From Octopus vulgaris (lineage: Eukaryota), in NCBI GenBank assembly GCA_951406725.2, contig OX597814.1, positions 109,182,001 through 109,246,000 of the forward strand: a stretch of DNA of 64,000 nucleotides, given 5' to 3'. The notes below the pieces were generated by a model. That model worked only from the letters and a program-made list of their open reading frames with translations, ran no database searches and was not told where the DNA came from. A program made the translations under genes and the position numbers. Numbering within the stretch: position 1 is the stretch's first letter; each line of letters starts with the position of its first letter. This document shows, in pieces, positions 6,923-52,441 of the stretch.

Positions 6923-8721
6923 TCATCATCATCATCATCGTTTAACGTCCGCTTTCCATGCTAGCATGGGTTGGACGGTTTAAAAGGGGTATGGGAAGCC
7001 CGAAGGCTGTACCAGGCCAGTCAGATCTGGCGGTGTTTCTACAGCTTGATGCCCTTCCTAACGCCAACCACTCCGTGAGTGTAGTGGGTGCTTTTTATGT
7101 GCCACCGACACAAGTGCCAGACAAGGCTGGCAAACGGCGTCGCTCGGATGGTGTTTTTTACGTGCCACCGGCATGGAGGCCAGGCAGGGCTGGCACAGCC
7201 ACGATCGGATGGTGTTTGTTACGTGCCACCAGCACGGAGGCCAGTCGATGCGGTGCTGGCTACGGCCACATTCGGATGGTTTTCTTATGTGTCACCGGCA
7301 CTGGTACCACAAACTACAAATTCCATTGATGTGAATCGATTTCGATTTGATTTGATTCTTCGATTTTGATTTTCACTTGCCTCAACAGGTCTTCACAAGT
7401 AGAGTTATGTGTCCCAAGAAGGAAGGTATGCACAGGTGGACTGACTACATCCCAGATAGGGGCCACGGGTTATGGCCTCACTTGTCCTGCCGGGTCTTCT
7501 CTCGCACAGCATACTTCCAAAGGTCTCGGTCTCTGGTCATTTCCTCGGTGAGATCTAAAGAGCGAAGGTTGTGTTTCACCACCTCATCCCAGGTTTTCCT
7601 GAGTCTACCTCTTCCACAGGTTCCCTCAACTGCTAGGGTGTGGCACTTTTTCACACAACTATCTTCATTCATTCTTACCATGCATCCATACCAGCGTAGA
7701 CGTCTCATTTGCACACCACAACTGATGCGTCTTAGGTCCAACTTTTCTCTCAAGGCACTTACACTCTGTCGGGTATGAACACTGACATTACACATCCATC
7801 GGAGCATACTGGCTTCATTTCTTGCGAGCTTACGCATATCCTCAGCAGTCACGGCCCATGTTTCACTGCCATGTAGCATGGCTGTTCGTACACATGCGTC
7901 ATACAGTTTGCCTTTTACTCTGAGCGAAAGGCCTTTTATCACCAGCAGAGGTAAGAGCTCTCTGAACTTTGCCCAGGCTATTCTTACTCTAGCAGTTACA
8001 CTTTCGGCACATCCACCCCCACTACTGACTTGATCACCTAGGTAACGGAAACTATCAACTATTTCTAGTTTTTCTCCCTGGAATGTGGCGGAAGATGGTC
8101 TCTGCGCATTTTCAGCGTTTATTGCACCAGAGCATCTGCCACATACAAAAACTATATTCCTAGTTAGCCTTCCTTTGACATTGCTGCACCTCTTATGTGT
8201 CCATAGCTTACACTTGGTGCACCTTATAGAGTTCCTACCTACGCCTTTTCTACAGATCGAGCAGGGCCATCTACCTGAAGGCGTTTGAGATTTGTCTACC
8301 TTCCTACTTATTAGGACTTTGGTTTTAGCTAGATTGACTCTGAGGCCCTTCGATTCTAATTCTTGCTTCCACACCTGAAACTTCTCCTCGAGTTCTGATA
8401 GTGATTCAGCAATTAGAGCAAGGTCATCAGCATAGAGGAGCTCCCAGGGGCATCCTATCTTGAATTCCTCCGTTATTGCCTGGAGGACTATGATAAATAG
8501 GAGGGGGCTGAGGACTGAGCCTTGGTGGACCCCAACCTCCACCCGGAATTCTTCACTGTACACGTTGCCAACCCTCACCTTACTAACAGTGTCCCTGTAC
8601 ATGGCACGCACAGCTCTCACTAACCATTCATTTATCCCTAGTTTCCTCATTGACCACCAGATAACGGAACGGGGGACCCTGTCAAAGGCTTTCTCCAAGT
8701 CAACGAAAGCCAGGAACAGAG
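6921..8721 (-). mobile_element. 5'-truncated RTE-clade LINE: RT C-terminal half, 3'UTR and (GAT)n tail
   Basis: ORF 7478..8698 with DLEKAFDRV, GVHQGSVLSPLLF, YADDL, FRYLG and GSETW motifs; intact to its stop; ~550-nt 3'UTR. Confidence 0.95.
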
Positions 8722-8739
8722 TTCGTATACATATATACT

Positions 8740-9145
8740 CTCTCTCTTTACTCTTTTACTTGTTTCAGTCACTTGACTGCGGCCATGCTGGAGCACCGCC
8801 TTTAGTCGAGCAAATCGACCCCAGGACTTATTCTTTGGAAGCCTAGTACTTATTCTATCGGTCTCTTTTGCTGAACCGCTAAGTTACGGGGACATAAACA
8901 CACCACTATCGGTTGTCAAGCGATGTTAGGGGGACAAACACAGACACACAAACATATATACATACACATATATATACATATATGACGGGCTTCTTTCAGT
9001 TTCCATCTGCCAAATCCACTCACAGGCTTTGGTCAGCCTGAGGCTATAGCAGAAGACACTTGCCCAAGGTGCCACGCAGTGGGAATGAACCCAGAACCAT
9101 GTGGTTGGTAAGCAAGCTACTTACCACACAGCCACTCCTGTGCCT
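8740..9145 (-). mobile_element. tRNA-derived SINE with CORE-like ccttgggcaagt block, internal (CA/TA)n and CR1-like 3' end
   Basis: Head GTGGCTGTGTGGTAAG...GGTTCA.TCCC; tail (GTAAAAGA)n. Other copies at ~2830-3150, 3510-3870, 11400-11900, 12395-12810, 16720-17110, 45905-46200, 55310-55770 and 62815-63195. Confidence 0.85.
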
Positions 9146-18254: not shown

Positions 18255-19648
18255 CATATATATATATACATATACATATATACATATACATATATATATA
18301 TACATATACATATATATATATACATATACATATATCATCATCATCATCGTTTAACGTCCGTTTTCCATGCTAGCATAGGTTGGACGGTTTGACCAGGGTC
18401 TGGGAAGCCAGGAGGCTGCACTAGGCTGCAGTCTGATCTGGCAGTGTTTCTACAGCTGGATGCCCTTCCTAACGCCAACCACTCCGTGAGTGTAGTGGGT
18501 GCTTTTTATGTGCCACCGGCACATGGACCAGAGGTGGCTGGCAAATGGCCACGATCAGTTGGTGCTTTTACGTGTCACCAACACGGACGCCAGTCAGGAG
18601 GCGCTAGCATCTGCCATGTTCGGACGGTGCTTTTAATGTGTCACCAGCACGGGTATCTTAACTACAATTTCCATTTGATTTTCATTTTGATGTTGGTGTT
18701 AACGCACTTGGCTCAATAGGTCTCCTCAAGAACAGCGGGATATATATATATATATATGAAGTTGCATATATATATATATATATATATATACATATGTATA
18801 TATATATACATATACATATATATACATATATATACATATATATATACATATATATATTGTTGTGGGTTCAGCTTAAGGACAGTTGGCTGTGACCTACTTT
18901 GGAATATATCCATTGTCCTGTCAGATTCAGGTGGATTGATTGGTTCTGGGTAGACCTGCGACCCCTTTCGGGTGAACTAAAGTTCGTTCTAAACACCCCT
19001 TAAAGAAGGAAGAATCTAGTGACAGTGAAGAAGAGGAAGAAGAAAGTAGTGAGGAAGACAGATTAAGGAACTTGAGAGCTGGTAGAGAGAGTGACAGTGA
19101 CAGCATCGATGAGGACAGGCACATAGGACCAAGCGGCGATAGAGAGAGTATTAGAGCAGAGAGAGATAGAGCAGAGAGACATTGTGTACAGAGTTGTTGA
19201 AGAGAGAACTGTGTAATGAACATTGAACTGTATAGGCCTTTAATGTCCTTTGAACTGTAACTTTAATGTGTTTTGAAACAGAACTGTTGTCTCCAGACGT
19301 GTACTCTTGAAATGCTGTTGTTATTGCATTTGATGTGTTGTTACCGGGACAGTTTAAATGCTGTGATGTGTTGATTCTGTTACTTGCTTATATTTACCTG
19401 TTGTATACCTGTTTCTTGCATGTGTTATCTTTAAATGTACTTGATGTTGTAATAGTCATATAAACTAGTTGTTAAACGTAGCCAATTGCCTTCCGCTGTA
19501 TCTCTGTGTCTCTTCTTCCTGCTGCTGTTGTTGTCATTGTGTCTCTCTCTCCTCTCCGAGTTTCCGTGGCGAACATTCGCTGATCGAACGGGCCTGTGGG
19601 AGGGATTCCGTAACAGCTTTCGTTCTTCGGAGGTCCCCTCGTAACAAT

Positions 19649-19666
19649 TGGTGTCAGAAGTGGGAT
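19649..19666 (+). other. Primer-binding site complementary to the tRNA-Leu 3' end
   Basis: TGGTGTCAGAAGTGGGAT, 2 nt after the LTR-terminal CA. Confidence 0.85.
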
Positions 19667-21335
19667 TTTCCTGATTGCTGCGCTCGATCGGCTTTTCGCT
19701 ATGGATTCGTCTGGTGGTCAGACTGGGAAGGAGGAGATTTCGCTTGCCTTGATTACAGAGATGTTGAGGGGCCAGATGACGCAGACAAACACATTCTTGG
19801 AAAGGATGGACAAGAGGCGACAGGGCCTGTGGGCAGATCGGGAAGAGCTAGAGGTTATGGATGGGTCAGCTTTGGAGGATCGGTGTCGGACCGGGGATAG
19901 CGACTGTCCTGTGGGCGGAGATTGCCCGTCAAATGAAGCATCAAGTGAAATAGATAATGAAGGAAGTGTTGCGGAACCTGGGTTGGTTGCCGAAATTTGT
20001 GATGCTGGACCGGAAGTGGTTACGGAAACTGAAGCGTATGTTGCTGAGACCGATGTTAAGAAAACCGAAAAGCCTGCTGCGTGTGTGATGGCTGATGCTG
20101 TTGTCCCATATCTGGAGCCCTTGGCGTCTCGACCCCTCTCTCTCAAAGCTCAGGACGAAGAGCTGGCGAAGTCTGCAGCAGATATCGCTGAATCGGAGGA
20201 GCCGGCTCTATGTGTGATGGTCGCTGCGGTTGTTGTGCCGTGTGTGAGTCCTTTGGTGTCTGGGCCCCTGTCTCTCGGGGCTCAGAAGGACTGTATGGTT
20301 CCCACTGTGGAGAGGCCACAGGCGTGGATGGACTGGCGGCCAAGCGTACGTTTTGTGAAGCCTTCGGTGCAGAAGCTGGTGAGGAAGAGGACCAGGCCTG
20401 GTGACGAGGCGAGACGACTGCGAACGGTGGTAGGTCTACCAAGACCAGGAAGACTGCTTCAGTGTTGGGTGAGCTGTGTGGTTGATGGCTGCTTGGGGCC
20501 GGTGGAGCCCGACAGGCAGTGCATAGCAAAAGCTCAATTGAGGGTCGGGTGGACCCTAGTAGAAGCAGAAGCTGGCAGAGCGCTGGCTGGGTCAGCCGAT
20601 CTTTTGGAAGTGGCACAGGCGATTTGTAGAGGGCAAATCAAGGAATCGTGCCAGATGGCGAACCAGTGGCGGGGCCAGTTCTGCCGATATGGCAACGCAG
20701 TTGAAGGAGATGGTGGCCCACTGATGCAGTTGCGGAAGCAGTCCGCAAGGAGTCGCTGGTGCTTAGTTGGCACTCAGATGTTGGTGAAAAGTGCAGGACG
20801 TTGGTCGCGAGGGGTGTCGGATGTTGGCCGCACAAACCTGGGAGAGTGCTTCATCAACCAAGGCGGTCGTCGCTTGATGAAGTAGCAAGGCCGGAGCAAA
20901 GTCCCAGTACGGCAGCGAGGGAGGAGATATCGGCGACAGGGAAAAGTGGAAAAGCGGAATGGTCCCTGGTCGTCGGCGATAGTTGCGCGGAATGGAGACG
21001 GCACAGCAAGATGCTACGTGGGGTATAGAGCCCTGAGGAAGGTGGCCACTGTGAAGGATTGGTCGGACCCTGCCTGTGTGAGGGATTTGAGGAACTTCCT
21101 CGGACGGTGCGCCTATTGTAGGCGGCTCGTAGGAGGCCTGGCGGCCTTGGCAGAGGTGTTACCCAAGGCGCAGAGGGAAGATGCCAACCTGTGGCCAGTG
21201 GTGAAGTGGTGGCTGTGGGAGGTGAGAACCCCGGAGGAGAAACCACCCAACGGGACCTCCAGTTCCTGGAACATCTGCTGGAGCTTGCCCTCAGAGGTAT
21301 GGGTTTGTTGTGCTTTTGTCGGGTCGACAAAGCTT

Positions 21336-21348
21336 AGGTAGGGGGTAG
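21336..21348 (+). other. Polypurine tract
   Basis: AGGTAGGGGGTAG immediately before the TG of the 3' LTR. Confidence 0.8.
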
Positions 21349-26059: not shown

Positions 26060-26812
26060 ATGATTGCTCACACGGAGCCCATAACATACAATAATAATAA
26101 TAATAGAAATAGTATTGATATTACCAAAATTCATAGCAGCATTGGCGTTAACAATAGTAATAATGATAATAACATTAGCCAGATTATTAACAATGGTGGT
26201 GTTAGTGGTAATAGTAACAGCATTTCTAATAACAGTTGTATTATTGATGATAACAATCACAGCATTCCTATAGTCAGAGAAATTGCCGACGATATTACAA
26301 TTAATAGTAATGATAATAAGATGAATAGTATTGTGGCCAATGCTAGCAACAATATTTACACCTATCATAACAATAAAAACTCTGTCTTAGTATCAGAAGT
26401 TAACCCCAACAGATTAAAGTTCTTATCCAAAAATTCCAAAATTAGAAACACCATTTACCAGTGCAAAATTTCTTCTGGAACCGATGTCTTCTTCTACATT
26501 GGAGCAACTTCTTCTAAATTATCCCAAAGGATCTCCAATCATTATTCAACTTTCCGAGATAAGAGAAAACAACACAGCACGGGACTAAGTAAATTAGTTT
26601 GGCGTCTGAAAGACAGCAATACAACTTTCAAGCTGGAATGGTCCATATTATCGGTGTCCTTTCCGTTTGATAAGGGCAGAAAACTTTGTGGCATCTGTAA
26701 TTCCGAACTTTTTCATATTTTGTTCGCCAAAGTCCCTTTAATAAATACAATCGTCGAGAGGTCCTACAGGTGCATGCACTGGCAAAAACACACCTTTCAC
26801 TCATATGAATAA
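26060..26812 (+). pseudogene. GIY-YIG endonuclease domain of the PLE; RT portion lost
   Basis: IY...YIG motif, conserved Arg, C-terminal CxxC and CxH; preceded by an Asn-rich low-complexity stretch. Confidence 0.85.
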
Positions 26813-30441: not shown

Positions 30442-30528
30442 ATATATATACATATATATATATACATATATATATATACACACATATATATATACATATA
30501 TATATATACATATATATATATATACATA

Positions 30529-30569
<41 letters not shown>

Positions 30570-30787
30570 ACATACATATATATATACATATATATATATA
30601 CATATACATATATACATATACATATATATATACATATATATATACATATATATATACATATATATATATACATATATATATATACATATATATATACATA
30701 TATATATATACATATATATACATATATATATATACATATACATATATATATACATATATATATATACATATATATATATACATATAT

Positions 30788-33700
30788 ATGATTGATTGAT
30801 TGATTGATTCTAGTTTCAGCTTATGAGCTGTGGCCATGCTGGGGCACCGCCATTTGGTGTTGCTACTTGGTTTCACTTCATGGAGGCTTTCTAGCAACTG
30901 CTATTTGGTGCATGAGAGAGTTCGATGCAGCTGCCCTCATCTGCCCCTCCTGCCGTGAAGTTGGTTCATCTGGGACACCTGACAGGAAGAGATCCAGCTT
31001 CATTTTAAAGACATCTGTATCCACCCCATGCAGGTCTCTCAGGTTCTTCGGGAGGATATTGAAGAGCTGTGGGCCTCGGAAGCCCAGGCTATCACAGTAT
31101 CTTGTCCTACATCTTGATGGCAGGTTTGGAGTCCTAGGCACCACGCAGTGGCGCCCAGTTCTGGCATTTGCGTAACTCTCGATGCCAAAGTTCAGGACAC
31201 TTCCCTCCAGGATCTTCCAGATGTATATTATGGCATATCTTTCCCGCCTACGCTCCAGGGAATATAATTTTAATCTCTTGAGTCTTTCCAGTAGCTTACA
31301 TTCTGCATAGAGGCTATCTTCTTTGTGTAGCTTCGTTGGATCGCCTCAAGTTCTGTGATCAACTTGACACTGGATGGTGACCATAGCTGAGAGCAATAGT
31401 CAAAGTGGCTTAGGACAAGTGTCTTCCAGAGGACCATCATGGTTTCTTGTTCTCTTGTTCTAAAGGTTCTAAGAATCCATCCAGCCAGCCGTCTACATTT
31501 CATTGTCAGTTTAGCAACATGTACATGAAAGGTCGCGTCATCACTCATGTGAATACCCAGGTCACGCACTGATTGTGCCTCTGGGATTGCAATCCCTCCG
31601 GGTCCAGTGTATTCATTGGGTATTGCATTCAGTTTTGCATGCTGATAGTATAAAGCTTGAAACTTTCCAGCATTGAACTGCATGCTATTCTTTTCAGCCC
31701 ACTTGTATATTTCGTCCAGCTCACATTGCAGGTGTTTAGTGTCCTCAGGGTTCTGTATTGCCTGTGAAACTTTTGTATCATCTGCATAACTTGTGATCGT
31801 GGCTCTCTGCGTGGCTGAGGGCATGTCTGAGAGGGCCATTATGAACAGTAGTGGTCCCAGAACAGTGCCCTGCGGAACACCGCTCACTATTTGTGTGTTA
31901 ATGGAGGTGGCCCCATTGGCTACTACCACCTGACTTCTATCCTTCAGAAAGTCATGAAGCCATTCTCCCAGTTTTCCAACTATGTTGAGATCACGCAGTT
32001 TGTGACATATCATTCCATGATCGACTTTATCAATGGCCTTTGCAAAGTCGAGATATATCACTTCCACATTTGAGTGGTTGAGCAGCCGTTTCAGCACCCA
32101 GTCATAGTGTTGTAGGAGCTGAGTTAAACAGCTTCTCCCTGGTCGGAAACCATGTTGGGTGTCGGGCAGCAAGTCATTCTCTTCAAGGAAGGTGATCAGC
32201 TTCCTTCTGACTATTCGTTCCATGACCTTGCTGATGTGTGAGGTCAGAGAGATAGGTCTATAGTTCTTGGCTTCCGCTCTGCTACCTCCTTTATGAATGG
32301 GGCATATTTTACCTTCCTTCAGTTTTCCTGGAAGTTTGCCAGCTGCAAGGAAGCTCTGAAAGAGGAACTGCAGTGGTCTTGCTAGGACTCTCTTACATGC
32401 TTTTAGGTGGATTGCCGGGAATCCATCGGGGCCAGTAGCTGAGTCTGTTTTCATTTCATCTATAGCCTTGGTTACATCGTCTTCATTTATATCGATGTAA
32501 TCTATCGTCGCCGCCTCTGATTTTATATCTGCAGTGGTAAAAAAGTCAGTTGGATTGGTGATTTGGAGATGCCCAAGGGGTGGAGTGAAAACACTCTTGA
32601 ATTGCTCATTCAGTATTTCACTTACCCTCATTGGTTTTCCTGTAAGTGTGCCATCCTTTTCGAGGAGTGGCCCTATTCTACAGTGCACTGTAGCTGTTTC
32701 TTTGGCATACCTGTAGAAAGCTCTGGGGTTAGATTTTATGTTTTCTATAGCCCAGGCTTCTTTGTCTGCTCTTTCTTTTTCATGGGAGAGTTGCAGACAT
32801 TTTTCGATTTCCAACAGTTTTATTTTTAGGCGGGACTTTTCACTGCTTTCAATCTGTTTGTTTAGGCGATTTGAAAATTTCGTACGCCGTCTCATTAAAA
32901 TTTTCCTCTCTCTGGGGATTTTGTTCTTGTGTACAGCGGCCTTTCTCTCTGGGACACATTTGTAGCATATGGCTTGCATTACAGACATGAATTGTTGAAG
33001 TTTCACGTCGATGTCTGGCGAGAGAGACATTCAGGCCAGTTTTGTTTGAGGATCTCTTTCTCAATTTGTTTCCAGTTTGCCTTATGGTAGTTCAAGCTGG
33101 AAAGATTTTGAGGGTTTCTTGTAGGCTGCATGTCCGTGCTCTCTTTTGGCCCGTACATGGTCAGCTCTACCATGTTGTGATCCGAGAGTAGTGTCGGTGT
33201 CACTTTCACATTATGGATGAGATCCATGTCATTTGTGAAGCAGAGATCCAGTGTGTTACCTGCCCTGGTTGGTTGGAGTATTACCTGCTCCATGTACAGG
33301 GTGTTGATGAGGTTCAGGAGGGACCTCGCCTGTCCTCGTTCACATCTTGTCATTCCTGGGAGAGAAAGGCCCTCGGGCCATCTGACATTGGGCAGATTGA
33401 AGTCTCCCATAAGAAGCACACCTATGTGTTGTTCTAATGTGGTTAGAATTTCTTCTATTTTTATAAGGCAGTCTTCGAACTTGCCCACATGGCTTGGGGC
33501 ATCTGGAGGGCGATATGTAGCACACACAACTACATCAAGTTGCCTAATATGTACAATTAGTGTGTCACACACCGAGTTTGAGTATGACAAGAGGACCTGG
33601 GGTGTGAGGTCCTCACGGATGTACATAGCAACACCTCCATGACTCCTTTCTTTCCTGTCGGTCCGTAGTACAGCATACTGTGGTATGTGTAACTCCGCAT

Positions 33701-33906
33701 CTGCTATGTCCGGTTTCAGGTGCGTTTCTGTAAGTGCTATGCATAAGGCTTCATTGCATGCAACAAAGTCTCTCAGGAACGGGATCTTTGTCCTGTTACT
33801 GAGTGTTTGCAGTCCTCTGATGTTCAGTAGGAGTATCGAGGTGAGGTGTACGTTGTTGCCGGCGGTGTCCATCCTGTGTCTGTTTGCTGTGGTGGTCTGG
33901 TATATA
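30788..33906 (-). mobile_element. CR1-group LINE family A, copy 1: APE endonuclease plus RT, two 1-nt frameshifts, (CAAT)n tail
   Basis: LNIRG, TETHL, GDFN, NYRPISLTS, GVPQGTVLGP, YADD and LERRRERY motifs across ORFs 33003.., 31270..33030 and 30878..31144. Confidence 0.95.
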
Positions 33907-38899: not shown

Positions 38900-41834
38900 A
38901 TCCTAGGCACCACGCAGTGGCTGTCTGCTCCCTCAGTTCTGGGCATTTGCGTAACTCTCGATGCCAAAGTTCAGGACACTTCCCTCCAGGATCTTCCAGA
39001 TGTATATTATGGCATATCTTTCCCGCCTACGCTCCAGGGAATATAATTTTAATCTCTTGAGTCTTTCCCAGTAGCTTACATTCTGCATAGAGGCTATCTT
39101 CTATGTGTAGCTTCGTTGGATCGCCTCAAGTTCTGTGATCAACTTGACACTGGATGGTGACCATAGCTGAGAGCAATAGTCAAAGTGGCTTAGGACAAGA
39201 GTCTTCCAGAGGACCATCATGGTTTCTTGTTCTCTTGTTCTAAAGGTTCTAAGAATCCATCCAGCCAGCCGTCTACATTTCATTGTCAGTTTAGCAACAT
39301 GTACATGAAAGGTCGCGTCATCACTCATGTGAATACCCAGGTCACGCACTGATTGTGCCTCTGGGATTGCAATCCCTCCGGGTCCAGTGTATTCATTGGG
39401 TATTGCATTCAGTTTTGCATGCTGATAGTATAAAGCTTGAAACTTTCCAGCATTGAACTGCATGCTATTCTTTTCAGCCCACTTGTATATTTCGTCCAGC
39501 TCACATTGCAGGTGTTTAGTGTCCTCAGGGTTCTGTATTGCCTGTGAAACTTTTGTATCATCTGCATAACTTGTGATCGTGGCTCTCTGCGTGGCTGAGG
39601 GCATGTCTGAGAGGGCCATTATGAACAGTAGTGGTCCCAGAACAGTGCCCTGCGGAACACCGCTCACTATTTGTGTGTTAATGGAGGTGGCCCCATTGGC
39701 TACTACCACCTGACTTCTATCCTTCAGAAAGTCATGAAGCCATTCTCCCAGTTTTCCAACTATGTTGAGATCACGCAGTTTGTGACATATCATTCCATGA
39801 TCGACTTTATCAAAGGCCTTTGCAAAGTCGAGATATATCACTTCCACATTTGAGTGGTTGAGCAGCCGTTTCAGCACCCAGTCATAGTGTTGTAGGAGCT
39901 GAGTTAAACAGCTTCTCCCTGGTCGGAAACCATGTTGGGTGTCGGGCAGCAAGTCATTCTCTTCAAGGAAGGTGATCAGCTTCCTTCTGACTATTCGTTC
40001 CATGACCTTGCTGATGTGTGAGGTCAGAGAGATAGGTCTATAGTTCTTGGCTTCCGCTCTGCTACCTCCTTTATGAATGGGGTATATTTTACCTTCCTTC
40101 AGTTTTCCTGGAAGTTTGCCAGCTGCAAGGAAGCTCTGAAAGAGGAACTGCAGTGGTCTTGCTAGGACTCTCTTACATGCTTTTAGGAGGATTGCCGGGA
40201 ATCCATCGGGGCCAGTAGCTGAGTCTGTTTTCATTTCATCTATAGCCTTGGTTACATCGTCTTCCTTTATATCGATGTAATCTATCGTCGCCGCCTCTGA
40301 TTTTATATCTGCAGTGGTAAAAAAGTCAGTTGGATTGGTGATTTGGAGATGCCCAAGGGGTGGAGTGAAAACACTCTTGAATTGCTCATTCAGTATTTCA
40401 CTTACCCTCATTGGTTTTCCTGTAAGTGTGCCATCCTTTTCGAGGAGTGGCCCTATTCTACAGTGCACTGTAGCTGTTTCTTTGGCATACCTGTAGAAAG
40501 CTCTGGGGTTAGATTTTATGTTTTCTATAGCCCAGGCTTCTTTGTCTGCTCTTTCTTTTTCATGGGAGAGTTGCAGACATTTTTCGATTTCCAACAGTTT
40601 TATTTTTAGGCGGGACTTTTCACTGCTTTCAATCTGTTTGTTTAGGCGATTTGAAAATGTCGTACGCCGTCTCATTAAAATTTTCCTCTCTCTGGGGATT
40701 TTGTTCTTGTGTACAGTGGCCTTTCTCTCTGGGACACATTTGTAGCATGTGGCTTGCATTACAGACATGAATTGTTGAAGTTTCACGTCGATGTCTGGCG
40801 AGGAGAGACATTTAGGCCAGTTTTGTTTGAGGATCTCTTTCTCAATTTGTTTCCAGTTTGCCTTATGGTAGTTCAAGCTGGAAAGATTTTGAGGGTTTCT
40901 TGTAGGCTGCATGTCCGTGCTCTCTTTTGGCCCGTACATGGTCAGCTCTATCATGTTGTGATCCGAGAGTAGTGTCGGTGTCACTTTCACATTATGGATG
41001 AGATCCATGTCATTTGTGAAGCAGAGATCCAGTGTGTTACCTGCCCTGGTTGGTTGGAGTATTACCTGCTCCATGTACAGGGTGTTGATGAGGTTCAGGA
41101 GGGACCTCGCCTGTCCTCGTTCACATCTTGTCATTCCTGGGAGAGAAAGGCCCTCGGGCCATCTGACATTGGGCAGATTGAAGTCTCCCATAAGAAGCAC
41201 ACCTATGTGTTGTTCTAATGTGGTTAGAATTTCTTCTATTTTTATAAGGCAGTCTTCAAACTTGCCCACATGGCTTGGGGCATCTGGAGGGCGATATGTA
41301 GCACACACAACTACATCAAGTTGCCTGATATGTACAATTAGTGTGTCACACACCGAGTTTGAGTATGACAAGAGGACCTGGGGTGTGAGGTCCTCACGGA
41401 TGTACATAGCAACACCTCCATGACTCCTTTCTTTCCTGTCGGTCCGTAGTACAGCATACTGTGGTATGTGTAACTCCGCATCTGCTATGTCCGGTTTCAG
41501 GTGCGTTTCTGTAAGTGCTATGCATAAGGCTTCATTGCATGCAACAAAGTCTCTCAGGAACGGGATCTTTGTCCTGTTACTGAGTGTTTGCAGTCCTCTG
41601 ATGTTCAGTAGGAGTATCGAGGTGAGGTGTACATTGTTGCCGGCGGTGTCCATCCTGTGTCTGTTTGCTGTGGTGGTCTGGTATATAGTGGGTAGTCCCA
41701 CCTGCGGGCTTGGGTTTGATGAAGCCATGTCAGCTGCTGTACAATCTTTTGTGCCATGCACAAAAAAGATTGTTGCTCAGCAGCTGCTCTTTCGACAACA
41801 TCATGTTGGCTGTTTGTGGCGAGCACAACATCTG
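38900..41834 (-). mobile_element. CR1-group LINE family A, copy 2: ORF1 end plus 886-aa ORF2 with a premature stop; 3' end missing
   Basis: ORF 39101..41761, nearly identical to copy 1; runs into the gap. Confidence 0.93.
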
Positions 41835-41934
41835 NNNNNNNNNNNNNNNNNNNNNNNNNNNNNNNNNNNNNNNNNNNNNNNNNNNNNNNNNNNNNNNNNN
41901 NNNNNNNNNNNNNNNNNNNNNNNNNNNNNNNNNN
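41835..41934. other. Assembly gap (100 N)
   Basis: Direct reading. Confidence 1.
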
Positions 41935-44900
41935 AACAGTGCAACCACACCTCCAGCCAAAAACTGCTCCCTAAGCAGGAAAATTCTTTTTTAGCCATGT
42001 TGAACATGGCAAAAGAGATACACAAAAACATTCTAGCCATCACTCAACACCATCCTATGCTATTACCCCAGTGCACCAATTCCCCACATTGCTGCCACTA
42101 ACACACACAAAAAATCCAAGCCCCCTGCAACAGTCAAAACCAGCCACTACACTAACCTCCACATTCCTACTCAATGCACAAGGTGTCAGCCCTTCCATCA
42201 ATGCACAAAAATGGAAGGTCCAATTCATTGAAGACTGGGTTGGTAACCATTCACACCACATCCCTTTCTTCATTCTCACTGAGACCCACCTTGACAACTC
42301 CCACTTGGAAGCCGAAGTGAGAGTGAAGAATTTCACAACCATCCGCGCGGATCGTATCGGCAGGAGGAAGGGTGGAACTGCCATTTTCCTGCATGATTCA
42401 TTTACGGCAGATGGAAATAGTATATTCTCCAACGGCTACTGTGAATCAGTCACCGTGCACAACAAAGCCAATGACCTGACAGTAATTGGGCTCTATAGGC
42501 CGCCCCAAACACCCATACTGTGCTTTAAAGAATGCCTCAACAGCATTAAGTGCTTTATTCAACAGTGCCATTCTAGCAACATACTCATGATGGGAGACTT
42601 CAATCTACCCTGTGTTGACTGGACTACAAACTGTTTGAAACCAAGCACTCCCGCCTCAACCGCTGACAAAGAAGCAGCAGAGTCACTTTTCGACTTTACG
42701 AATGAGTTTTTCTTGTCCCAACTTGTCCTTGCACCAACAAGACATCAGAACATTTTGGACCTAGTGTTTAGTAACCACACTAACACTATACATAACGTTA
42801 CAGTGGAAAAAACCCTTCTTTCAGACCATGACATGGTTCTCTGTAACATGAAATTCCACCAGCCGAAAGCTAATCCTAGTGACCTTCCTCCAGCCCACCC
42901 ATTTGACAACATGGATCTCCATAATGCCAACTGGGATGCAATCAGGAACGAGCTATCACATGTTGACTGGTCCTTTACACATACACACATCTCCACCAAC
43001 CATAAAACATCTTGGCAGATCTTTGTAGACACCGTCACAGACATATGTGCAAAACACTCCCCACCAAGACCTGTGAACAAAAAGTGCAGAATCCCCCAAA
43101 ACAGAAAAACCATTATCAGAAAAATAAAAAGAACAAACAAAAAAATTAACAAACTAAAGTACTGCCAACAGCAACACACACATTCGACGGCTATCGCACT
43201 GCTTGAATCCAAAAAAATATAACCTCCAACAATGCATGAAGACCCTCATCAATAACCAAAGATCAGCTGAGGAGAAGTGGGCCATTGAAAAAATCAAACT
43301 CAACCCCAAAGTGTTCTTTTCATTTGCGAGGAAACGCAGGGTCACTGTCTCCACTGTAGGCCCTCTAATTGACGAAACTGGCACTCTCCAAGATAATGCC
43401 AAATCCATGGCCGAGATACTGCAGAAACAATACTGCTCTGTTTTCAGCAATCCTGATATGGCCGATCTGGGCTGTATCAGTGATGTCAACCCCCAACACA
43501 CTATATCGGACATAACGTTTAGTGCCCCTGATGTCTTAGCGGCGATAAACGAAATAAAACACAATTCAGCAGTAGGCCCCGATAGGTTCCCTGCTTGTGT
43601 CCTGAAGGTGTGTCGACACCAACTTGCATCTCCCCTTGCTAATCTGTGGAGAAACTCACTGGATGCTGGCTATATTCCAAAAAACCTTCTGTCCCAGTCT
43701 GTTGTCCCAGTTTTCAAAAAGGGAAACAAGTCCCTTGCAGTGAATTACCGTCCGATCTCACTCACCTCTCATATCATCAAGGTATTTGAGAGGGTGGTGA
43801 GATCTCGAATAACCCAATTTCTGGAAAGCAACAGACGGCTGATCTCCAACCAACATGGGTTCCGTAATGGAAGGGACTGCCTAACGCAGCTCCTGCATCA
43901 CTTTGAGGACATTTTGAGAGCTTTGGGAGAGGGCTCCAACACCGATGTCATCTACCTTGATTTCAGTAAGGCCTTCGACAGGGTCGATCACAAGATCCTA
44001 TTGAAAAAACTATCCAACATTGGTGTCTCTGGAAAGTTACTGAAATGGATTAAGTGTTTCCTGACAGACAGATCTCAACATGTTGTAGTTGAAGGGGTAA
44101 AATCAAGCCCAGCCAAAGTCAGTAGTGGCGTTCCGCAAGGCACTGTGCTGGGCCCACTTCTTTTCATCATTTACATTAATGACATTAATGACATCATCAA
44201 GCACAGCAACATAAAAATCTTTGCAGATGACTCCAAGCTACAGAAGGTCATAAATGAGGCGAGTGACCGGACATGCCTTCAGTCAGATCTACTGGCTGTT
44301 ATCCAATGGGCAGAAAAAAACAATATGCTGCTGAACGAGGATAAATTTGAGCTAATCCACTTTGGAAAAGAGGATGCCCTGAAACTCCCATACTCCCTTC
44401 CTTCAGGTGAAACTCTCACGGCGTCCAACAACATCAGAGACTTGGGAGTAATTGTGGACAACAACGTAAGCTGGGCCACTCATATAAACACCAAAGTTGA
44501 CATGGCCCGCAGAATGTGTTCCTGGATTCTCAGAACTTTCCAGTCGAGAGATATCCACACCATTATCCTTCTCTTCTCCACTTTTGCCCGACCCCACCTT
44601 GAATACTGTTGTCCACTGTGGTCTCCCCACACAATACAAGGTATCATAAAAGTTGAAGCACCTCAAAGGGCAATCACAAAAAAGATAGATGGCATGACAG
44701 GCCTCGACTATTGGGGTCGACTAGAAAAGCTAAAACTCTATTCTCTCCAACGTCGTCGTGAGCGCTACATCATCTGCATGATGTGGAAAATATTCCATCA
44801 GCATTGCCCAAATGATGTTGGCATCACCTTTAAGGTACATCCAAGGCTTGGGCCCCGTGCCATCCGCCCAAAACAAAAATCGCACTCTCATCTCATAACA

Positions 44901-45196
44901 ACAATACGGCACAATTATTTCACCTCAATTGGCCCCGCTCTCTTTAACATTACACCAAAACACATTAAAACAGAAACTGACCCTATAGGGTTCAAGAAGT
45001 CTTTGGACAGATTCCTTCAAGAAATCCCGGATAAACCCCCTACACCCGGATATGTCTCTGTAAACAATAACTCTCTACTTGAGTGGGCCATAGTGCCCAA
45101 ATTCTGACTTGAAAGACTTCACCAGGTGGTGCTATTAAGTTAGACATGGCCTGGGCCAATAATGGCCGAAACCTATCAAAGTATCAAAGTAAGTAC
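41935..45196 (+). mobile_element. CR1-group LINE family B: ORF1 end, ORF2 (APE plus RT, one frameshift at the poly-A near 43211), short 3'UTR, TATCAAAG repeat tail
   Basis: ORFs 42071..43222 and 43203..45107 with TETHL, GDFN, SDHD, GVPQGTVLGP, FADD and LQRRRERY motifs. Confidence 0.95.
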
Positions 45197-51562: not shown

Positions 51563-52441
51563 TATGAAGATCATTCCAGAAGTTTTGAGGATTTTTTTAG
51601 GGGAGTTGGTTATAACTATCCTAGGTTATTGTAATTTTAATATATCGTTACTCTACATCTAATAAGCTGACCGGCCAACTTTTGCTGAACCAGACTTAAA
51701 GAGATGGCTATAACAATACTTTGAACACACCCTACAAAGCACTGCTTATCACAGCTGAATAATTTTCAGGATGCAGTCAGGATGTGAAGACAATTTGGAA
51801 GTTCGTTATGCAAAAAGGTTTTGTATTAAACTGGGCAAAAACACGACTGAAACTTACAAAATGCTCCAGACAGGTCGTGGCTTAACTTATATGAGCCAAG
51901 CATCTGTTTTTCACTGGCACAAAAGGCCAGGCAAATGAAGTCCACCAAGAAGCTCATGAAGATGCCCTTTTTCAACAGCAAGGGTATCATCTACATCCAT
52001 TGGGTTCCCTCTGGTCAAATGGTCAACAAAGTCTTTGTGGAGGTTTTGAGGGAGTCCCAGAAGAGATTTCATTGCAAAAGGCCAGCACACCTGGGCCAGG
52101 ACAATGCACCAGTTCACAATGCCATTCTGGTAACCAAAGGTACCAAAACTCTCCCCCACCCTCTCTACAGTCCAGACCCAGCTCCCTATGACTTTCGGTT
52201 GTCCCCCAAGCTGAAGGAGAACCTCAAAGGCAGTCATTTTGAGGATGAAGGAGGTCGTGACAAGGCTACTGGACACCTTCGCTTTGGAAGATTGCCATGG
52301 GGCCTTCACACAGTGGCAAGAGCACTACAACCAGGGCACTGAAATCAGAGGACCCTACTTTGAAGGCGATTAGAGTTTTGTATGTCTTTGAAAGGAATGT
52401 CTCTCCAGAAAAACTCTCAGAACTTCAGGAATGTACCTTGT
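51563..52441 (+). mobile_element. Decayed mariner transposon
   Basis: ORF 51935..52342 with QDNAPVH and HPLYSPDPAPYDF; degenerate TIRs. Confidence 0.88.

Follow-up and report, generated by a model that had tools for sequence, protein, structure and literature searches.

Introduction

How LINEs translate their second open reading frame (ORF2) is called an open question in a passage of PMC3894237. For SART1 and L1, the relevant section of PMC2881922 gives initiation-based routes to ORF2. The text on TRE5-A and TRE3-A in PMC5911963 states that their ORF2 needs a -1 shift, and for the LINEs of Paramecium, +1 shifting, reinitiation or readthrough has been suggested (PMC5405496, in the part on these elements). 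Among non-LTR elements, the available portion of a review of frameshifting names only HeT-A, TART and mammalian LINEs (PMC5009743). Our literature search found no description of frameshifting at the ORF1/ORF2 junctions of CR1-group elements; Repbase entries, subscription papers and supplements may mention such overlaps. In the available text of PMC4120745, the words “CCCH” and “Myb” do not occur, “frameshift” occurs neither there nor in that of PMC13343379, and the ORF1 survey in PMC13343379 does not cover translation in the same portion.

We analyzed 64,000 nucleotides of Octopus vulgaris DNA (contig OX597814.1, positions 109,182,001 to 109,246,000 of the forward strand; hereafter the window). 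An earlier note on the window had pointed to a possible -1 frameshift site between ORF1 and ORF2 of a LINE on the minus strand (family A), with the same architecture in a divergent LINE on the plus strand (family B). The known answers to LINE ORF2 translation are initiation-based.

Results

Junctions of two LINE families in the window

The minus strand reads CAA TCT TTT TTG TGC ATG, in which the slippery heptamer T TTT TTG (41767-41761) is in phase with the ORF1 tail. The ORF2 frame is -1 relative to ORF1, the shift lands on the GTG directly after the heptamer, and the frame is shut by a TGA on the 5' side, all as the earlier note had described. The features of the window are as follows.

41761..41767, minus: family A slippery heptamer T TTT TTG, encoding Phe251-Leu252 of the 303-aa ORF1
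41777..41779, minus: TGA shutting the family A ORF2 frame, three codons 5' of the heptamer; present in 30/30 family A loci
41741..41773, minus: family A hairpin, whose 5' arm holds the heptamer; confined to some lineages and unlike a standard 3' stimulator
41605..41834, minus: family A ORF1, 3' part, with stop TGA at 41607-41605; the 5' part is lost in the gap
39101..41767, minus: family A ORF2 (APE endonuclease and reverse transcriptase, RT), -1 frame; premature stop, without its 3' end
41726..41728, minus: MASSN ATG, a mutation private to the window copy; CTG in 29/29 other copies
41651..41653, minus: MDTAG ATG; ATG in family A, GTG in 29/30 loci of the sister subfamily A' (1 unreadable)
41835..41934, no strand: 100-N assembly gap, truncating both elements at the 5' side
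41987..41993, plus: slippery heptamer of family B, T TTT TTA, with a T run prone to length changes between genomic copies
41985..42018, plus: family B hairpin enclosing the heptamer, from folding
41935..42101, plus: family B ORF1, 3' part; 409 aa in intact copies
41975..45107, plus: family B ORF2, -1 frame; about 200 codons without Met
30442..33906, minus: second family A copy, 5'-truncated, beginning about 80 nt past the junction; 3' end retained
7478-8755, minus: other mobile-element remnant, RT with a weak PHD match
19614-21341, 26060-26812 and 51851-52342, all plus: other mobile-element remnants, judged by eye

The junction peptide in the ORF1 frame is S-F-L-C-M in family A and S-F-L-A-M in family B, which bears out the S-F-L-x-M noticed before in both families. 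The 886-aa ORF2 reported for family A belongs to a damaged copy, which has a premature TAG (39103-39101) and has lost its 3' end, whereas the ORF2 of an intact copy has 1036 codons counted from the heptamer. The family A ORF1 stop TGA overlaps the endonuclease Asn codon (41605-41603). In the window copy of family B, a one-base change within an A run near 43200 disrupts ORF2. Because the gap at 41835-41934 removes the 5' side of both elements, the full ORF1s (303 aa in A, 409 aa in B) were read from other copies. At this gap the two LINE families meet head to head, with roughly 50-70 nt left between the cut and the slip site of each; the arrangement is likely a scaffolding join and not real. 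As for the remnants judged by eye, we take the frames at 19614-21341, 26060-26812 and 51851-52342 to resemble an LTR element, a GIY-YIG frame and a mariner fragment, respectively; Pfam gave no match for the two of them that were scanned.

Both families are young and abundant: the best 40 matches are 99-100% identical, and the genome holds 685 junction-pattern matches for A together with A' and 380 for B. Identity between A and B is 39% in ORF2 and 20% in ORF1. ORF2 matches PF14529, PF03372 and PF00078, that is, an APE endonuclease and an RT, and ORF1 has weak Pfam matches, under the curated cut-offs, to Myb_DNA-bind_4 (Myb/SANT) and CCCH. A predicted model of ORF1, of low confidence (pTM 0.30), has three N-terminal helices and a C-terminal helix (237-273), in the middle of which the heptamer codons 251-252 would fall; a fold search with this model returned nothing at E<=0.001, with only weak Myb, TEAD and GT-1 rows. 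An ORF1 layout of Myb/SANT-like or PHD N-terminus, CCCH fingers and C-terminal helix is seen in L003:819-1727, L050:438-1664, P0021-P0024, P0052 and L093. It fits none of the ORF1 types I-IV (RRM+CCHC, transposase 22, PHD+RRM, esterase) as these are set out in the available text of PMC4120745.

The heptamer is the conserved part of the junction

Junction types were gathered by protein similarity and not by the heptamer motif. The 11 types comprise eight from this genome (A, A', B, C, D, E, F and G) and three metagenome contigs (L091-L093), the close relatives among 80 such contigs fetched; most copies from a second similarity search, which used an ORF1 homologue, were of the family A type. One copy represents each type (for C, a copy with the majority heptamer), and copies with a truncated, replaced or shifted junction, such as L191, L228, L233, L252-L254 and L256-L259, were excluded.

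What is conserved at the junction is the slippery heptamer and not the hairpin. An in-phase heptamer stands at the homologous ORF1 motif in 11/11 types, spelled T TTT TTG in A, A' and E, T TTT TTA in B, F, G and L091-L093, and A AAT TTT in C and D. The last two have N-F-V instead of F-L, with A AAT TTT placed one codon earlier (24/28 loci; 3 broken, 1 unreadable); therefore, the heptamer outlives the protein change. Since x-F-L is also retained in ORF1 proteins from other sources, protein constraint contributes to the site. Its conservation nevertheless goes beyond the need of the protein, as seen in this swap to A AAT TTT with F-V and in the spelling T TTT TTR, which, given x-F-L, has a chance of 0.017 per lineage from codon usage. 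None of 15 F-L pairs in ORF2 bodies is spelled T TTT TTR, and 2575 upstream ORF1 codons hold 10 in-phase X XXY YYZ heptamers, none of the three junction types. When the three codons were left free in the search pattern, the first 100 of 364 A-type matches gave, by hand count, 90 with T TTT TTG, 2 with another heptamer and 8 with none. Just past the heptamer, A and E are identical at silent sites in 11/14 codons vs 44/105 upstream (p 0.02) and 395/672 in the ORF2 body (p 0.17), so that the extra conservation there is marginal.

The ORF2 frame is open from the heptamer onwards

None of the 11 types has a stop in the ORF2 frame over the 51-141 codons from the heptamer to the first conserved endonuclease Asn; upstream of the heptamer, the stop density of this frame is 3-11%. 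The rough joint chance of the open -1 frame, counted only to the first Met, is 4e-12 for six lineages, a kind of figure that overstates independence because the lineages share ancestry. On the 5' side, the frame shuts 1-8 codons from the heptamer in 9/11 types and 21 and 45 codons from it in C and D, respectively. Past the heptamer, ORF1 and ORF2 overlap by 32-134 codons. In A, A', E, C, D and L091, the ORF1 stop falls on the Leu-Asn codons of the endonuclease, and both frames are therefore open across the whole linker.

Six types (B, C, D, L091, L092 and L093) have no ORF2-frame Met before the endonuclease Asn, and B and L091 have none at all for about 200 codons. The other five (A, A', E, F and G) each have an ORF2-frame AUG in this interval, at no common position, and every A-lineage type examined retains some AUG before the endonuclease. 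The earlier note had named two ATGs before the endonuclease, MASSN and MDTAG, as starts that could overturn the frameshift reading. The MDTAG ATG is kept in 30/30 family A loci, about 45 nt before the ORF1 stop and without overlapping it. MASSN, on the other hand, is private to the window copy, and A' has GTG at MDTAG and Mets elsewhere; read from the alignments, the alternation of ATG and GTG between A and A' consists of silent changes before ORF1 Trp codons. As MASSN occurs in one copy only and MDTAG varies between sister subfamilies, these ATGs do not overturn the reading.

RNA structure at the junction

The family A hairpin (41773-41741) folds as the earlier note had drawn it, at -12.7 kcal/mol (z -4.44; 0/200 shuffles as stable), and the family B hairpin has -16.0 kcal/mol (z -4.90). 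Among 1000 synonymous re-codings, 0.9% fold as well for A and 0.5% for B. Across the set, only 3/11 junctions fold better than their synonymous re-codings at p<0.05 and 8/11 do no better. RNAalifold, run on all junctions but D, which is nearly identical to C, found no consensus pairs in the 10, and the named stem pairs in 55.5% of cells vs 55.4% for a slid control; 6/500 shuffles attain the observed stem pairing. A hairpin core of -10 to -12 kcal/mol is kept in A', E and F, and one compensatory pair (C-G to U-A, read from the folds) separates B from F; C/D, G and L091 are without the hairpin.

The earlier note had supposed a recoding cassette conserved across the clade, to be given up if the phase of the heptamer or the hairpin were not conserved among related families. 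The heptamer part of it holds, in phase with ORF2 at -1 in 11/11 types, and the hairpin is not clade-wide. Nor are CATGGC and AAAAGA supported as cassette words of the clade: where families A and B have them in common, they are probably for the most part codons of the M-A-x-K/E-I helix of ORF1.

Structural stimulators usually, but not universally, begin 5-9 nt past the slip site, according to the relevant part of PMC5009743. The enclosing hairpin covers the slip site itself and, because it contains it, is not a standard 3' stimulator. At the 5-9 nt spacing, family A has no 3' structure (z +1.58); its best downstream hairpin has -6.0 kcal/mol, which 75% of 40 shuffles match. Weak structures at the 3' spacing that beat most shuffles occur in B, F and L091, and a clean stem-loop 3' of the heptamer in L092 only. 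A conserved stem-loop 5-9 nt downstream was not found across the junctions, in folds that covered local hairpins.

Length variation of the T run among genomic copies

T runs were counted by hand from listed coordinates. T6 has changed its length in 15 of the first 100 copies of A/A', 15 of the first 100 of E, 9/99 of G and 38 of the first 100 of B; instability is higher in B than in G, which is without the hairpin (p 2e-6). The 38 length variants of B differ by -1 (17), -2 (10) and -3 (8) or are longer (3). Among the copies listed, ORF1 and ORF2 are fused in 1/100 of A/A', 3/100 of E, 2/99 of G and 12/100 of B, and most genomic copies retain the unfused state. Twenty B indel copies (L291-L310) resemble a normal copy at 97.9-99.8%, have variants in common with normal copies and do not form one clade; their other runs of six or more are rarely altered (2/39 cells). 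Barring assembly error, the slippery T6 of family B (41987-41992, plus strand) is thus a site-specific deletion hot spot. It may stem from slippage in reverse transcription beside the strongest hairpin, or from assembly error. The aligned contigs showed neither joints nor an insertion at the T run and do not speak to expression or slippage.

Classification and the wider CR1 group

The RT tree has 59 unnamed rows and a midpoint root. One clade of it (28/59 rows, SH-aLRT 100) takes in all 10 junction types with a full ORF2, L092 having been left out as too short, and esterase-type loci are relatives of this clade. The 3' ends of seven single copies consist of short tandem repeats without poly(A). 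CR1-group LINEs end in a short-repeat tail. In all seven families (L241-L247, L250), a short GC-rich element, followed by CATGGCC, lies just before the tandem-repeat tail; the GC-rich element is likely an RT recognition stem-loop. Within the CR1 group, poly(A) is said to be unique to Zenon in the available text of PMC13343379. Domains, repeat tails, sequence motifs and esterase-type neighbours in a tree without named reference elements point to the CR1 group, and we use this label, as against L2, Crack, Daphne or Kiri, provisionally. A scan of viral contigs found no relatives.

A wider set of 80 metagenome loci contained 28 with an ORF of at least 900 aa, of which 16 have an upstream ORF at a -1 overlap, 5 in frame and 3 at +1, and 4 have no ORF1. 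An in-phase heptamer lies inside the overlap in 15 of the 16 -1 loci vs 2.5 expected from their own upstream rate, a count of heptamers at non-homologous positions that Lys-rich ORF1 ends may inflate through A runs. Two of the -1 loci are esterase-type, with the heptamer at the very end of ORF1. Counting against the frameshift reading, ORF2 stands at 0 or +1 in 8/28 loci of this set. The metagenome LINEs L116, L119, L124, L126 and L128 have ORF1 and ORF2 in the same frame with a single stop between them, possibly a readthrough branch. L098, L100, L101 and L108 carry a different ORF1 type, towards whose end the motif D-M/L-T-P is encoded by C CCT TTA/G or C CCA AAA; these letters are in phase and inside the -1 overlap and may form a hidden slip site.

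Discussion

We propose that ORF2 of this CR1-group clade, with its Myb/SANT-like and CCCH ORF1, is probably made by low-level -1 ribosomal frameshifting, a mechanism read from sequence comparison. Most ribosomes would complete ORF1, and a few percent or less would shift by -1 at U_UUU_UUG or, in the relatives, at U_UUU_UUA (the HIV-1 heptamer type) or A_AAU_UUU. The product would be a minor ORF1-ORF2 fusion of about 1290 aa that carries the endonuclease-reverse transcriptase and loses the second half of the predicted C-terminal helix of ORF1; the outcome would be a low ORF2p:ORF1p ratio. Local hairpins yielded no conserved 3' stimulator, so that the slipperiness of the site itself would have to suffice, possibly aided by the nascent peptide or by linear 3' sequence. 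A ribosome that reaches the site would have opened the enclosing hairpin, which could at most modify the shift in particular lineages. A heptamer ending in G slips poorly, which counts against the family A site, and broken heptamers exist (8 of the first 100 A-type matches; 3/28 C/D loci and 1 unreadable).

For the A lineage, the main rival to frameshifting is reinitiation. ORF2 would then have its own start at an AUG within the overlap, used through termination-reinitiation or through unconventional initiation, and the heptamer would be a by-product of the conserved F-L. Family A has MDTAG in 30/30 loci, 5/11 types have an AUG before the endonuclease, and reinitiation is described for SART1 and L1 in the relevant section of PMC2881922. 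For the clade, we consider a separate start unlikely: 6/11 types have no AUG, with none for about 200 codons in B and L091, its position differs between sister subfamilies, and the MDTAG codon is about 45 nt short of the ORF1 stop, which it does not overlap. A separate start would also leave unexplained the codon spelling (0.017), the A AAT TTT swap and the -1 frame that is open from the heptamer. The A lineage could use or add reinitiation, keeping its AUG before the endonuclease. Still less probable is a start on the GUG after the heptamer or a splice acceptor tract in the T run. A, A' and E have GTG next to the heptamer and an AG lies within 14 nt in 5/11 junctions, but the other eight types have a different codon at this place, and 6/11 junctions, family A among them, have no such AG, whose phase moreover varies; we regard both ideas as extremely improbable.

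The instability of the T run raises the question of whether RNA polymerase, and not the ribosome, slips on T6, so that a minority of transcripts would carry a fused ORF1-ORF2. The run does change in the genome, in 38 of the first 100 B junctions (12 fusing) and 15/100 of A/A', but C and D have only A3T4 at the site and no long run. Cis preference, in which ORF2p copies its own mRNA, is known for L1 and assumed here; together with polymerase slippage, it predicts mostly fused new copies. Fused copies make up only 1/100, 3/100, 2/99 and 12/100 of A/A', E, G and B, and the 20 B indel copies share variants with normal copies instead of forming one clade. Because fused copies do not dominate and C/D are without a long T run, a ribosomal shift is favoured, and polymerase slippage seems to us very unlikely. 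The view of the enclosing hairpin as a conserved and required part of a recoding cassette can draw on A (0.009) and B (0.005), which beat their synonymous re-codings, on the -10 to -12 kcal/mol core in A', E and F, on the one compensatory pair between B and F, and on the 6/500 shuffles that reach the observed pairing. It is improbable in the light of the absent consensus pairs, the equal slid control, the 8/11 junctions that fold no better than re-codings and the loss of the hairpin in C/D, G and L091; the hairpin also covers the slip site, and stimulators begin 5-9 nt after it in the account of the relevant part of PMC5009743.

Ribosomal frameshifting is directly testable here, with a conserved seven-base site, a natural alternative heptamer and young copies that are 99% identical. 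If it occurs, an ORF2 annotated from its first Met lacks part or all of the endonuclease in many such families, and a one-base offset in such elements is a feature and not damage. We further suggest, tentatively and with somewhat less than even confidence, that gag-pol-style -1 frameshifting could be the default route to ORF2p in a large part of the CR1 group. It would have persisted while the ORF1 type (CCCH, esterase and others) and the heptamer were repeatedly exchanged, and it would work with no conserved stimulatory RNA. In that case, the active enzyme would be an ORF1-ORF2 fusion, and the definition and assays of ORF2p would change in one of the most widespread animal LINE groups.

Comparison with known systems

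Like TRE5-A and TRE3-A of Dictyostelium, the octopus families are two-ORF APE-RT LINEs with ORF2 at -1 (PMC5911963, in the passage on these elements). The TRE elements belong to another lineage and host, target tRNA genes and have an oligo(A) tail. The octopus families have a defined slip site that is conserved across the clade, and the TRE passage of PMC5911963 names none. In the arrangement of the junction, the octopus families recall the gag-pol of retroviruses and LTR retrotransposons, as described in the relevant part of PMC5009743: a first ORF for a nucleic-acid-binding protein with an in-phase X XXY YYZ heptamer ahead of its end, the enzyme at -1, and a minor fusion product, which in the octopus elements would be the ORF1-ORF2 fusion. 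Unlike gag-pol, they are non-LTR elements, and among local hairpins no conserved stem-loop was found 5-9 nt downstream, a clean one being present in L092 only.

With LINEs of the CR1/L2 lineage, whose ORF1 types I-V are treated in the available text of PMC4120745 and PMC13343379, the octopus families have in common an APE and RT ORF2, short tandem-repeat 3' ends and esterase-type kin in the tree. They differ from these ORF1 types in a Myb/SANT-like helical N-terminus (PHD in some relatives) with CCCH fingers. The UAAUG coupling of SART1 and the unconventional initiation of L1 solve the same problem, a low level of ORF2 from a bicistronic LINE RNA (PMC2881922 and PMC3894237, in the sections concerned). 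Whereas SART1 and L1 yield a separate ORF2p by initiation, ORF2 of the octopus families and their close metagenome relatives overlaps ORF1 by 32-134 codons past the heptamer, often without an AUG.
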